Assembly: GCF_041248615.1 (NCBI RefSeq)
Contig: NZ_CP158426.1
DNA length: 64,000 nt
From: Escherichia coli
Lineage (GTDB): Bacteria > Pseudomonadota > Gammaproteobacteria > Enterobacterales > Enterobacteriaceae
Reading direction: 5' to 3' (one strand)
Of this stretch, positions 728 through 4,200 are shown piece by piece. Every line of letters starts with the position of its first letter. The first letter of the stretch is position 1. Both the position numbers and the translations under genes were made by a program. The notes under the pieces are model-generated. The model ran no database searches. It saw only the letters and a list, made by a program, of their open reading frames with translations, and was not told where the DNA came from.

Positions 728-1213
728 TCATATTTTTAATATAGCCCCATGAGCTATAGGATCAAAACCTTCTAACCATGAGGTGTTTTTATCGAATAAT
801 GCACCTGTTATATTTATATCGCCATATCTATCACATAATAAATTAGCGCCACATAAGTCAGCACCAGAAAAATTTGAATCTTTAACGTCTGCATTGCAAA
901 AGGTTGAATTAGTTAATATAGCACCCTCAAAGTTTGCACCTATTGACCTTGAATTACTAAAGTCACTTCCAGTGAAATCTGAGTTATTAAGAATAGCGTT
1001 CATCAGAGCCGCATTGCGAAAGACAGCATTTCTAGTTGATGTATGTTGAATCATTACATTTCTTAAATGGGAATTTTCAAATTTCGCCCCATCAAGACAA
1101 TAACCATTGAGGATGGCACGATGTAGATCCATCCCGCTAAAATCATATCCAGCAAGAGTGGTACTATCTATATCAAGAAATTTATTGGTTATTAAAAACG
1201 CGATTCTTATCAT
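728..1213 (-). CDS. Pentapeptide-repeat protein (161 aa), putative cognate immunity protein of the Rhs C-terminal toxin (ydcD-like position)
   Basis: ORF track; tandem 5-residue repeats ([50 protein letters not shown]); start codon overlaps the rhs stop as ATGA at 1210-1213; AT-rich like the Rhs tip. Confidence 0.8.
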
Positions 1214-4200
1214 CTATTCCCCCAATCATCTAACTCCGGAAAAATTTGGCTAAACGGATATAGTGGTGCCGATAATGGACGCGTACCTGGCCGCTCAGGA
1301 GGAAGTTTATCACATAACAGACCCGCAACCATCCTGTGATTACCATTAACAATCACATTCCCATCCATATCAACCGGTGGTGCTCCACTACCATCTTCCA
1401 GCATTTGTACGTAGTGAGCTACTACGGGTACTGAGACTTTTTGTTGTACTGTCAACAAGGGACTGTTGGCCACAACCATCCTGATGTTTTCAGGTGTCGT
1501 AGGTAAACATTTAGTCTTCTCTTGACTAAAGGTATCATCCCACAATTTTGTTAAACCCATCACTGCCTGTTGTCTGTATTTATCCATGGGGTCAGCAATC
1601 AACCAAGATGGACCTGACTGCTCTATGGAATCTTCTCCGGAGAGACCCAACGGATCTATCTTAGTAGTTGGATTCAATGGATACTGATACAGGTTCCATG
1701 CACCTCTTAGCCCAATGGGATCCTGGGTGATATACCGCCCCTGCAACGGGTCATAGTACCGGTTGCGGTTATAGTACAGCCCCGACTCCTCATCATACTG
1801 CTGCCCCGGCAGACGGTACGGCTGTTGCAGTTGCTGCGCGCTGGTTTCGCCCAGCAGGTTTCCCCACTCGTCATACTCCCCCTGCCACGCCGTTTCCCCT
1901 TCCGGGCTGATGAGCGCCTGCGGCAGCCCCCGGTGGTCGCAGTGGTAAAGATGAAGTGTCCTCTCCGGGATGTATTCCGCCTCCATCTGGTTTTTCATCT
2001 GTTCCGCCGTCAGCCCGCACTGCTGAAGCCATGCCTCACTCTCCGCACTCACCGCACCCGCGCGCAGTTCCCGCTCCAGCCTCCCCAGCATCACCGACAG
2101 CTCCGCCGGTAGCGTCACCCCCGTGTCCTCCTGCAACACCTCCGCCAGACTCCGGTGCCGCGCCTTCGCCTGTTCACCATTCTCTGTTTCGATTCTGATG
2201 AGCGGCGTGAAGCTCCCCGGCTGGTATACCGTCTGGATACGCGTGGTGCCGGTCTGTACCGTCGTCAGCCTGTCACCGTCCCACCCGTACCAGGTCTCCT
2301 CCGGTTTACGCGACAGCGACATCCACCCCGTCAGGTCACGCTCCCGCCGCCACACCCGTTTCCCCGTCCGGCGGCCCAGCGGGTCATAGAGGTAGCGGCT
2401 CTCCACCTGTGGCTCGCCGTGCTGTATCCGCGTGTAGAACACCAGGCGGTGCTGGCTGTCGTAATGGTAGTGGTGCGTCCGCTCGTCGTGCATCCGTATC
2501 ACCCCTTCCGGGATACGGTCCGTCTTCTCCGCCAGCCTGCCGTATTCATCGTAGCGGTAGACATAGTGCGCATCTTCCGTGATGCGGTTATCCGGCCACG
2601 CCGTGAAGGTGCTGTCCGGGTGCAGTTCCGGGTCCGGCAGCCGGTTTCCTGCCGGGTCCGTCGCATACGGGATATCGATATCCAGGTTCGCCGCCGTGGT
2701 GTGAACGCCCGTCAGTCTTCCCGTGTCGCTGTAACGGTACTTCCGGCTCTCCTGCGGGCCGCTGATGCGCACCAGTTGCCCGTTATCGTTCCACGTATAC
2801 TCACGGTCAAGCTGCGGAAGGTTCAGGTGCCTGCTCCGGAGCTGCCCTGTGAGGGTGTACGCCGTGGCCTGTTCGTACCCCGCTGTACTGCCCGCCCCGC
2901 CGAAGCTGCGGGCCGTCTCACGGTGCAGCCGGTCCCGCGTGTACTCGACCAGCGGCGTTCCGCCCAGCTTCATCCCCGCAAGATAACCGCTGCCATACGT
3001 CAGCCACTCCACCGGCGGCAGACCGTCCGGCTCCTGACGGGTCGCCAGCCCCTGTTCGCTGTAGACGTGCCTCGTCTCATGCTCCCACAGCATCTCCCCC
3101 GTCTCCTGGTTCTCCACCGTCTGCCGTTCGCCCGTCAGGCGGCCTTTATCGTCATAGCCGTAGTGGACCGCCACACGGTGGCCTTCGCTCAGGTGGCTGA
3201 TTTCTGTCAGCCAGCCGTGGTCGTCATACTGCCACTGCTCCGCCGGGTCGCCGTTCACCGTCCGGTGCGTGATGCGCCCGGCGTCATCGTAGTACCACTG
3301 CGTGACCTGCCCCTCATCCTCGCTGCGGATGAGCTGCCCTGTGGCGCTGTACCGGTAACGCTGTGTCCTGCCGTCAAAGCCGCGCTGCTCCGTCAGCCTG
3401 TCCACCGGGTCATACCGGAACGTGGACTGGCTGCCGTTCTCGTTGGTCAGCACGGTGATGCGCCCGGCGGCGTCATACTCCATGCTGCGCGTCAGTCCGC
3501 CCTGCGTGGTGCTGACGGCCTTTCCCCACGCATCATACTGTGTCTCACTCCGGCTGCCGTTCGGGGCAATGATAGCGGTGAGGTCGCCTGCGGCGCTGTA
3601 CTCATAACGGGTTTCACGTCCCTGCGCATCCTTCTGACTGACCAGTTGACCACGCGGGTTATAACTGCTGTAAGTGCTGATGCCTTCCTCCCGGTGAACC
3701 GCCGTCCTCTGACCGTACCGGTCGTATTCATACCGCGTCGTGTACCCTGAACAGTCCGTAAATGCCTGAAGCTGACCGTACCGGTTTCGCGTTATTCTCC
3801 GCCTCACCCCGGTTCCGTCTTCCACCGCACAGGGCAGGCCACTGCGGGAAGAATCATAAAACCAGCGCGTAATGTTACCGTTGCGCGAGACCTCTTCCGC
3901 CAGCCTGCCCTGACGGTCATATTTCCGGCTGCGGCGCAGCCCGTCCGGGTACGTCACTGACGTCAGTTGCAACTGGTTGTTGTAACCATACCGTACCGTC
4001 CTGCCGTCCGGCAGTATCACTGAAGTCAGCTTTCCCGACGCCATATGCAGCCGGTACTCCGTCCGCCGTCCCGCCGCATCCGTCTGCGCCTTCAGCCTCC
4101 CCGCCTCATCATACTCGCTGCGGGTGATGCTCCCGTCCCCATACTCCTTCTTCACCACCCGCTTCAGGCCGCCCTCGCCCTCCGTGTACAGCACCTCCCG

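Follow-up and report, generated by a model that had tools for sequence, protein, structure and literature searches.

The 143-residue C-terminal tip of an Escherichia coli Rhs protein contains a 106-residue domain of the ParB/sulfiredoxin fold, and this domain defines a widespread family of C-terminal toxins that lies outside the coverage of Pfam. The invariant GNHR motif of the family occupies the position at which nucleotide phosphates are bound in ParB, sulfiredoxin and ToxB, and across phyla the toxin domain has a conserved genomic partner, a pentapeptide-repeat protein. This partner is most likely the immunity protein of the tip rather than a gyrase protector. We favor, with a probability of roughly 60%, a mechanism in which the tip would be an NTP-dependent enzyme toxin, either an ATPase or a phosphotransferase, and the pentapeptide protein would inhibit it by binding to it directly.

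The analyzed window is a 64-kb stretch of DNA in which the open reading frame at 1210–5421 (minus strand) encodes an Rhs core protein of 1403 residues. The Rhs core (residues 1–1260; 1642–5421, minus strand) comprises DUF6531, YD/RHS repeats and the RHS-associated core, and its last residues are DPLGL (1642–1656, minus strand). It scores 2513 bits against the NCBIfam model RHS_core (NF041261), for which the cutoff is 2000, and harbors a Pfam DUF6531 match together with 12 RHS_repeat matches. The tip directly follows DPLGL and corresponds to residues 1261–1403 (1213–1641, minus strand), the core model ending at residue 1260. The GC content amounts to 0.60–0.74 in the core, 0.42–0.46 in the tip and 0.33–0.37 in the downstream gene. 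An RHS_core score that exceeds the curated cutoff, together with the DPLGL boundary and the drop in GC content at this point, identifies the locus as an Rhs polymorphic-toxin cassette, which resides in the rhsE region of the E. coli chromosome. Positions 1210–1213 (minus strand) read tcat on the plus strand and ATGA on the coding strand, so that the TGA stop codon of the Rhs gene overlaps the ATG start codon of the gene encoding the 161-residue pentapeptide-repeat protein (728–1213, minus strand). A GGGGGAA run lies a few bases upstream of this start codon, at the position expected for a ribosome-binding site. Our data agree with the initial annotation, which had described a full-length Rhs protein, a 143-residue tip after DPLGL, an ATGA coupling to a 161-residue pentapeptide gene and a sharp GC-to-AT switch at the boundary.

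RefSeq names the two genes 'RHS element core protein' and 'pentapeptide repeat-containing protein' on an identical E. coli chromosome. Among E. coli chromosomes, the toxin and immunity DNA is 100% identical and is sited between a GGDEF gene and yncG. The tip occurs in 143 of 5426 complete genomes, and 132 further genomes carry decayed pentapeptide fragments in the orphan/immunity array of rhsA. Searches of plasmids detected the pair in one small Pseudomonas aeruginosa record and otherwise returned unrelated generic pentapeptide proteins. No T6SS genes were found within the 64-kb window, and the delivery route of the tip is taken from general knowledge of Rhs proteins.

The first 37 residues of the tip (1531–1641, minus strand), which separate DPLGL from the toxin core, are poorly conserved, and family members mostly begin to match the tip at its residues 38–50. 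The toxin core spans the remaining 106 residues (tip residues 38–143; 1213–1530, minus strand) and its AF2 model, with a pLDDT of 94.5, adopts the ParB/sulfiredoxin alpha/beta fold. The top structure matches of this model include kinases and phosphotransferases (SerK, SbnI and sulfiredoxin), and no structure match of the tip is described as a protein that acts on a topoisomerase. UniProt likewise labels relatives of the tip as ParB/Sulfiredoxin proteins. Single-sequence searches with the tip alone yielded no match in Pfam, NCBIfam, PHROGs or the PDB sequences, and the family profile gave chance-level matches only against the PDB sequences. Pfam ParBc (PF02195) matches none of the 66 family members, among which the sole ParB-clan match is a weak one to ddrB-ParB (E 0.36) on the GNHR motif, and no precomputed Pfam domain is present in any of the 108 database relatives. 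A word-indexed protein search with the tip retrieved two fragments only, since it is the core that determines how full-length Rhs proteins cluster. The initial view that the tip belongs to no recognized family therefore holds for profile libraries but not for its fold.

The toxin family includes 329 representatives spread over at least six bacterial phyla. The domain forms the C-terminal end of 145 of the 151 proteins that were fetched, and its carriers include Rhs, DUF637/filamentous-haemagglutinin, Hint and intein proteins as well as short standalone ORFs. Conservation and hhalign alignments mark GNHR (tip residues 100–103; 1333–1344, minus strand; codons GGT AAT CAC AGG) as a phosphate-binding (P/Box II) motif. 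The glycine is invariant and the histidine and arginine are nearly invariant across the 66 family members, and all four residues are invariant in the 32 toxin–pentapeptide pairs. The residue just before the motif is an asparagine in the E. coli tip, whereas an aspartate or glutamate is usual in the family. In these alignments, hhalign placed GNHR in register with the GCHR of sulfiredoxin (E 9e-4) and with the GERR of Spo0J (E 0.013). Sulfiredoxin and the free serine kinase SerK/SbnI are ATP-dependent phosphotransferases of the same fold, which is found here in a toxin context and, as compared with sulfiredoxin, with an asparagine in place of the catalytic cysteine.

The 161-residue partner matches Pfam Pentapeptide/Pentapeptide_4 over residues 18–125 (best E 1.8e-8), and its model comprises one beta rung per five residues over nearly its full length with a pLDDT above 93. 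In this model, the pentapeptide part is free of helices by DSSP, at its C-terminus as elsewhere. The protein is acidic, with a charge of -5 as compared with a family median of -7. The pentapeptide partners of the 32 pairs share invariant LHRA and LRxA motifs in their first coils and a TxWPxGF motif in the C-terminal cap; a conserved N-terminal hairpin (MIxIxFETGE) and the cap itself (TxWPxGFDP) flank the repeats.

Of 80 related loci, drawn from many phyla, 57 have a homologous pentapeptide gene of about 160 codons immediately downstream of the toxin, with phmmer E values down to 1e-32, and the start of this gene usually overlaps the toxin stop by -4 or -1. These findings uphold the earlier proposal of a swapped tip and immunity cassette with the pentapeptide protein as partner of the tip. 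Such conserved synteny denotes a functional partnership, which fits both binding of the toxin and protection of its target. A model of a toxin–linker–immunity fusion reached a pTM of 0.69 despite a disordered 30-residue linker, a value that only suggests an interface between toxin and pentapeptide protein, through an unspecified surface.

Close relatives of the toxin are accompanied by unrelated partner proteins, one of which is a mini HAD-like protein. The partner retains all four HAD phosphatase motifs in some lineages, and a Bacteroidota branch of the toxin is paired with the HAD domain of the 'Swiss Army Knife' RNA-repair proteins. Profile matches of the mini-HAD partner are weak (38K/AC98, E ~0.1; GK1056, E 0.4–0.6; DUF705, E 0.16), and spurious matches to designed TIM barrels outranked the HAD ones in these searches. 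Judging from its HAD-like partners, the toxin may catalyze a phosphorylation that a phosphatase can reverse. Since the partners vary among relatives, neutralization of the toxin or reversal of its effect fits better than shielding of gyrase.

The only characterized toxin with a ParB fold and a GNHR motif is ToxB, a CdiA C-terminal ATPase toxin with a ParB-CTPase fold that is encoded with its immunity protein iToxB (Kaljevic et al., bioRxiv 10.64898/2026.05.05.722872, May 2026). ToxB binds and hydrolyses ATP, its immunity protein occludes the pocket, substitution R108A in the G105-N106-H107-R108 motif abolishes toxicity, and the toxin causes compaction of the nucleoid, with neither cleavage of DNA nor induction of SOS (bioRxiv 10.64898/2026.05.05.722872). 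Like ToxB, the E. coli tip is a small ParB-fold domain that forms the very C-terminal end of a polymorphic toxin, has the identical GNHR motif, lacks a helix-turn-helix (HTH) or dimerization domain and has a small immunity gene immediately downstream. The two are also close in size (143 residues for the tip and about 150 for ToxB) and in the distance from the boundary to the motif (G100 here and G105 in ToxB). In contrast, ToxB was found with PF02195, which detects 0 of the 66 members of the tip family, and it follows VENN on CdiA in a cdiBAI operon, whereas the tip follows DPLGL on an Rhs carrier. Some relatives of the tip sit on haemagglutinin/DUF637 proteins. The putative base-contacting position is a serine in the tip and Asp75 in ToxB, and the tip is paired with a pentapeptide beta-helix, a description never given to iToxB in the ToxB paper. 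By the published description of ToxB and by the PF02195 result, the tip family is probably separate from ToxB, and it is considerably more widespread.

Two further systems invite comparison. The Tox-ParB and Tox-ParBL1 domains described by Zhang, de Souza, Anantharaman, Iyer and Aravind in 2012 (PMC3482391) are likewise ParB-fold C-terminal toxin domains with a conserved arginine, occurring on RHS and filamentous-haemagglutinin carriers, with HINT and with several secretion routes, and their predicted chemistry is phosphotransfer or nuclease activity (PMC3482391). They differ in their immunity families, which are Imm20, Imm27, Imm-SuFu, Imm-SUKH and Imm44 as opposed to the pentapeptide partner observed here, and the word 'pentapeptide' was not found in the text of that study (PMC3482391). 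Tse6 of Stenotrophomonas rhizophila is an Rhs C-terminal toxin whose immunity protein, Tsi6a, resembles a pentapeptide-repeat protein, and orthologues of Tse6 are found in Actinomycetes, Planctomycetes and Myxococcota on carriers of several types (bioRxiv 10.64898/2026.07.13.738213). Compared by description only, Tse6 differs from the tip in that its authors provisionally call it a nuclease, without mention of ParB (bioRxiv 10.64898/2026.07.13.738213).

In the mechanism that we favor, the tip would be delivered and freed from the Rhs shell, after which it would bind a nucleoside triphosphate. It would then act on a cytoplasmic substrate as an ATPase or, more likely, as a phosphotransferase, in line with the proposal for ToxB. 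Within the producing cell, the acidic pentapeptide beta-helix would bind the toxin directly and block either its active site or its substrate surface. The pentapeptide protein would thus be a stoichiometric inhibitor, possibly a substrate mimic, with no part in shielding gyrase.

A more specific version, which we regard as unlikely, would make the toxin a ParB/Srx-fold kinase that phosphorylates nucleic acid (an RNA or DNA end, or tRNA). Its antidotes would be of two kinds: a pentapeptide nucleic-acid mimic plugging the toxin here, and a small HAD phosphatase removing the phosphate in the sister clades with mini-HAD partners and in the Bacteroidota branch.

It is improbable, in our judgment, that the tip is a ParB-like DNA or RNA nuclease whose substrate surface is competitively blocked by the pentapeptide protein as a nucleic-acid mimic. 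The acidity of the pentapeptide partners is consistent with such a model, and Zhang et al. considered ParB-fold toxins as possible nucleases, yet the same authors attributed the nuclease label of ParB to erroneous assumptions and noted that the demonstrated chemistry is phosphotransfer (PMC3482391). DNA cleavage is absent with ToxB, the best structure matches of the tip include the kinases and phosphotransferases listed above, and sister clades have HAD-like partners, which are indicative of phosphate chemistry.

The initial annotation had proposed DNA gyrase or topoisomerase IV as a possible target poisoned by the tip, with the pentapeptide protein shielding the enzyme as a DNA mimic, as do Qnr, MfpA and McbG. 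The partner is indeed a genuine acidic pentapeptide beta-helix, and it shares the right-handed quadrilateral architecture and acidic surface of Qnr, MfpA, McbG and AlbG. However, it is shorter (161 residues), has its own N-terminal hairpin and C-terminal cap, and always adjoins a toxin domain. A C-terminal dimerization helix is a feature of Qnr/MfpA-type proteins. The model of the partner has no such helix, and its NCBIfam matches, which speak for a kinship with these proteins, are weak and lie below threshold (Qnr, 32.3 bits against a cutoff of 240; MfpA, 37.2 against 360; QnrB, 33.5 against 460). We rejected its assignment to the Qnr/MfpA family, and Qnr-type proteins are not known from toxin cassettes. 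The non-pentapeptide partners beside close relatives of the toxin also argue against a role as gyrase protector, and the tip itself belongs, at the level of its fold, to the nucleotide-binding ParB/sulfiredoxin class, which sets it apart from the proposed topoisomerase poison. With ToxB, which has the same fold and motif, the nucleoid does become compacted and segregation is defective, and topoisomerases are among the systems that its authors name as possibly affected, but the toxin neither induces SOS nor cleaves DNA (bioRxiv 10.64898/2026.05.05.722872), unlike poisons that act through cleavage complexes. We therefore consider poisoning of gyrase or topoisomerase IV quite improbable; a looser, chromosome-directed effect of the toxin would remain compatible with our analysis.

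Pentapeptide proteins are known as accessory parts of the T6SS (PMC3942780, PMC7714669), and our search for an earlier description of such proteins as immunity factors found T6SS papers naming them only as accessory or adaptor proteins or in references. We rejected as very improbable a chaperone or accessory role of the pentapeptide protein in loading or stability of the tip (as in TagAB and the DUF2169 fusions), with the immunity gene elsewhere, since the pairing is independent of carrier (Rhs, haemagglutinin-type or short standalone ORF) and of phylum, Bacillota without a T6SS included, and since the gene is translationally coupled in the canonical immunity position, is followed by no other conserved small gene, and has decayed copies in an orphan-immunity array.

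ParB-fold toxins were predicted in 2012 (PMC3482391) and first characterized in a 2026 preprint (bioRxiv 10.64898/2026.05.05.722872). To these, our analysis adds a GNHR-bearing family invisible to Pfam for which Rhs, haemagglutinin-type and other proteins serve as delivery carriers, with a dedicated pentapeptide-repeat subfamily next to the toxin in most lineages and proteins with HAD motifs in others. The E. coli allele, which is chromosomal, small and present in 143 sequenced strains, offers a handy entry point. If the toxin were a nucleic-acid kinase, its pentapeptide antidote would represent a second defined biochemical role for pentapeptide-repeat proteins besides gyrase protection, and the pair would provide a pointer to the substrate class of ToxB-like toxins. 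The pairing itself supplies a concrete candidate function, that of a toxin inhibitor and possibly a substrate mimic, for a class of repeat proteins that is little understood beyond gyrase protection.

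The Rhs open reading frame (1210-5421, minus strand) encodes a protein of 1403 residues, the first 1260 of which match the NCBIfam RHS_core model (2513 bits; cutoff 2000), so that the tip comprises the 143 residues (1213-1641, minus strand) directly following the DPLGL motif (1642-1656). The tetranucleotide tcat on the plus strand at 1210-1213 superimposes the TGA stop of the Rhs gene on the ATG of a second open reading frame (728-1213, minus strand), whose 161-residue product is matched by Pfam Pentapeptide models at residues 18-125. The core has a GC content of 0.60-0.74, the tip one of 0.42-0.46, and the pentapeptide gene is lower still at 0.33-0.37. 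These results confirm the cassette anatomy reported by the initial annotation: a full-length Rhs protein with a tip after DPLGL, an ATGA overlap, a downstream pentapeptide-repeat protein and a GC drop at the DPxGL boundary.

The window is part of an E. coli chromosome, and its bases 600-1800 are 100% identical to many complete E. coli genomes, such as CFSAN061763, in which the two genes are annotated as 'RHS element core protein' and 'pentapeptide repeat-containing protein' and are flanked by a GGDEF-domain gene and yncG/ansP, which corresponds to the rhsE region. A 127-nt direct repeat (83% identical; 287-413 and 7026-7152) frames the Rhs element and ISAs1 (H-repeat) transposase pseudogenes lie on both sides (open reading frames at 5843-6979; a fragment upstream of 728). 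The element resembles a unit bordered by IS remnants. In the identical RefSeq chromosome, the adjoining yncG (about 7491-7997) is annotated as a pseudogene that is frameshifted and contains an internal stop, the hicAB, hokB and ortT toxin genes lie on the same chromosome stretch, and a perfect 300-nt direct repeat occurs at 14012-14311 and 47736-48035, 33.7 kb apart. No T6SS genes were found within the window.

As a single sequence, the tip matched nothing in Pfam, NCBIfam, PHROGs or the PDB sequences. When 1.84 billion cluster representatives were searched exhaustively, 329 relatives were retrieved at E ≤ 1e-3, of which 117 reached E ≤ 1e-10, matching approximately residues 38-143 of the tip (1213-1530, minus strand). 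This domain ends exactly at the C-terminus of 145 of the 151 proteins fetched, which range from ~100 to 2388 residues; the long carriers that were inspected are of the Rhs/YD-repeat type, and AFDB structural relatives are also borne by DUF637/filamentous-haemagglutinin, Hint and intein-containing proteins. Its C-terminal position and varied carriers mark it as the C-terminal domain of a polymorphic toxin. The consensus of the family reads ..KC..aTpeNI......T.Q..VS.P.vq.YV..ie.G...PPIkVDGn.IVDGNHRY.AG.L.g..P...PGT........P...i..D..DWGN, with G63 invariant and Q29, S33, G47, I60, H65, R66 and A69 nearly so. P0001, an 80-residue protein from an NCBI genome, is a frameshifted copy of the tip, identical as far as ...LPPERP and in another frame thereafter; the allele is therefore decaying in at least one strain.

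Structure prediction, which the initial annotation had recommended, yielded a very confident AlphaFold2 model of the toxin domain (pLDDT 94.5, pTM 0.87; 66-sequence alignment). Foldseek returned many family members from AFDB50 under the UniProt name 'ParB/Sulfiredoxin domain-containing protein' and no significant match from the PDB, where the two best, weak hits are also ParB-fold proteins. In profile-sequence alignments, the GNHR motif of the family (tip residues 100-103, codons 1333-1344) aligns with GCHR of sulfiredoxin (E 9e-4) and GERR of Spo0J (E 0.013). Pfam ParBc matches no family member, the sole trace being ddrB-ParB (E 0.36) on the motif. Because fold matches were found but a ParBc match is absent, the family has a known fold, yet lies beyond present profile coverage; the earlier view that the tip belongs to no recognised family holds for sequence searches but not for its fold, that of ParB/sulfiredoxin.

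ParB-fold toxins on RHS and haemagglutinin carriers were catalogued by Zhang et al. in 2012, who argued that the demonstrated chemistry of this fold is phosphotransfer, not nuclease activity (PMC3482391). The closest characterised relative, ToxB, was described in a preprint of May 2026; this ParB-CTPase-fold domain, with which a few rare CdiA proteins end, has the phosphate motif G105-N106-H107-R108, binds and slowly hydrolyses ATP, loses toxicity upon R108A substitution and compacts the nucleoid without DNA cleavage or SOS induction; its nucleotide pocket is occluded by the immunity protein iToxB, and its cellular target is explicitly unknown according to its authors (bioRxiv 10.64898/2026.05.05.722872). 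Compared by description, ToxB and the tip have GNHR in common at nearby positions (105-108 and 100-103); PF02195, by which ToxB was found, does not match the tip's family.

Scanning one genome per species brought up 80 loci that encode a toxin-domain relative, spanning Pseudomonadota, Bacteroidota, Bacillota, Myxococcota, Planctomycetota, Actinomycetota and others. The next same-strand gene is homologous to the window's pentapeptide protein in 57 of them (phmmer E down to 1e-32) and its product pentapeptide-like by eye in 2 more; the pentapeptide protein is thus a conserved partner of the toxin domain. These partners, typically 158-164 residues long and usually encoded in a 4- or 1-base overlap with the toxin stop, have in common a distinctive N-terminal hairpin (MIxIxFETGE), first coils with invariant His-Arg and Arg (LHRA, LRxA) and a C-terminal cap (TxWPxGFDPxxxGAI). 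They are acidic (median net charge -7), and a ParB-like nuclease paired with a DNA-mimic inhibitor may be considered, improbable as it appears beside the phosphotransfer chemistry of the fold. A toxin-(GS)15-pentapeptide fusion model (32 paired sequences) reached a pTM of 0.69 despite its disordered linker, and its pentapeptide part forms a clean beta-helix with one rung per five residues and no helices. Two independently placed domains of such size would score about 0.5-0.55, an estimate rather than a computed value, so the pTM lends moderate support to a direct toxin-pentapeptide interface.

Other toxin relatives are accompanied by different proteins. A subgroup 45-47% identical to the window's tip ends in ...IQP in place of DWGN, and in six loci these Rhs toxins are followed by a protein of about 115 residues (L082:2716-3063, L085:3849-4199, L086:2565-2954, L088:2772-3125, L007:1173-1529 and L032:435-704). 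Its five aligned full-length copies keep DVDDT, WS(S/T), KPNV and DDQ invariant, arranged and spaced like the four motifs of HAD phosphatases; since profile matches are weak (38K/AC98, E about 0.1; DUF705, E 0.16), we designate it HAD-like at the motif level, and it may be an enzymatic antidote. In a more distant Bacteroidota branch (L060, L061, L072, L073, L074, L078 and L081, about 3870-4830 in each), small free-standing ParB/Srx-like proteins with DGHHRY precede a protein of about 155 residues. The one scanned, from L081, matches HAD_SAK_2 (PF18143; E 1.7e-27), the HAD domain found in RNA-repair proteins of the 'Swiss Army Knife' type, and its LDIDGVM motif recurs in the other Bacteroidota partners; such pairs could be toxin-antidote or kinase-phosphatase end-healing pairs. 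The retention of catalytic phosphatase motifs by some partners suggests that the toxin yields a phosphorylated product. One further relative precedes an unrelated 113-aa open reading frame. In a tandem Rhs array (L083:5068-7500), a different, non-ParB-like tip with a hydrophobic-helix end is followed by a pentapeptide gene of another subtype (PF00805), and immunity to more than one toxin family may thus be provided by pentapeptide proteins.

The initial annotation had proposed, by analogy with Qnr, McbG and MfpA, that the tip may poison gyrase, topoisomerase IV or another DNA-binding enzyme, with the pentapeptide protein as its immunity factor. The partnership stands, but gyrase poisoning countered by target protection is quite unlikely: the pentapeptide protein scores far below the Qnr and MfpA NCBIfam cutoffs, and because unrelated partner folds accompany one toxin domain, proteins acting on the toxin or its product fit better than gyrase shields throughout.

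Among 5426 complete E. coli genomes, 143 contain the tip, every time with a full pentapeptide gene. In a further 132, which lack the tip, all that is left of this gene is decayed fragments within the rhsA orphan/immunity array. There, two pseudogene fragments 95% identical to its 5' part (for example L084:5920-6204, the rhsA locus of E. coli elppa4; intact counterpart at 728-1213 of the window) adjoin yibA, NTF2-fold immunity genes and Imm57 genes. A second match is also present in genomes that carry the intact pair, and is assumed to be the same remnant. Decayed copies in an orphan array are typical of Rhs immunity genes, and the pentapeptide protein is highly unlikely to act as an accessory factor or chaperone.

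We favour, with a probability of about 0.6, a three-step model in which the Rhs protein would deliver an NTP-dependent enzyme of the ParB/Srx fold, this enzyme would act as an ATPase or, more likely, a phosphotransferase, and the producer would be protected by the pentapeptide beta-helix binding the toxin and blocking its active or substrate-binding face. Both Rhs cassettes and ParB-fold toxins have precedents; the Pfam-undetected family, its cross-phylum pentapeptide partner subfamily and the HAD-like alternative partners appear to be new in the searchable literature. Stenotrophomonas Tse6/Tsi6a, described in a preprint of July 2026 as an Rhs tip without known function whose immunity protein is pentapeptide-like, may, by description, belong to the same family as the window's pair. 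Our data provide pentapeptide-repeat proteins with a concrete candidate role, as toxin inhibitors, and offer testable hints on the mechanism of ParB-fold toxins.
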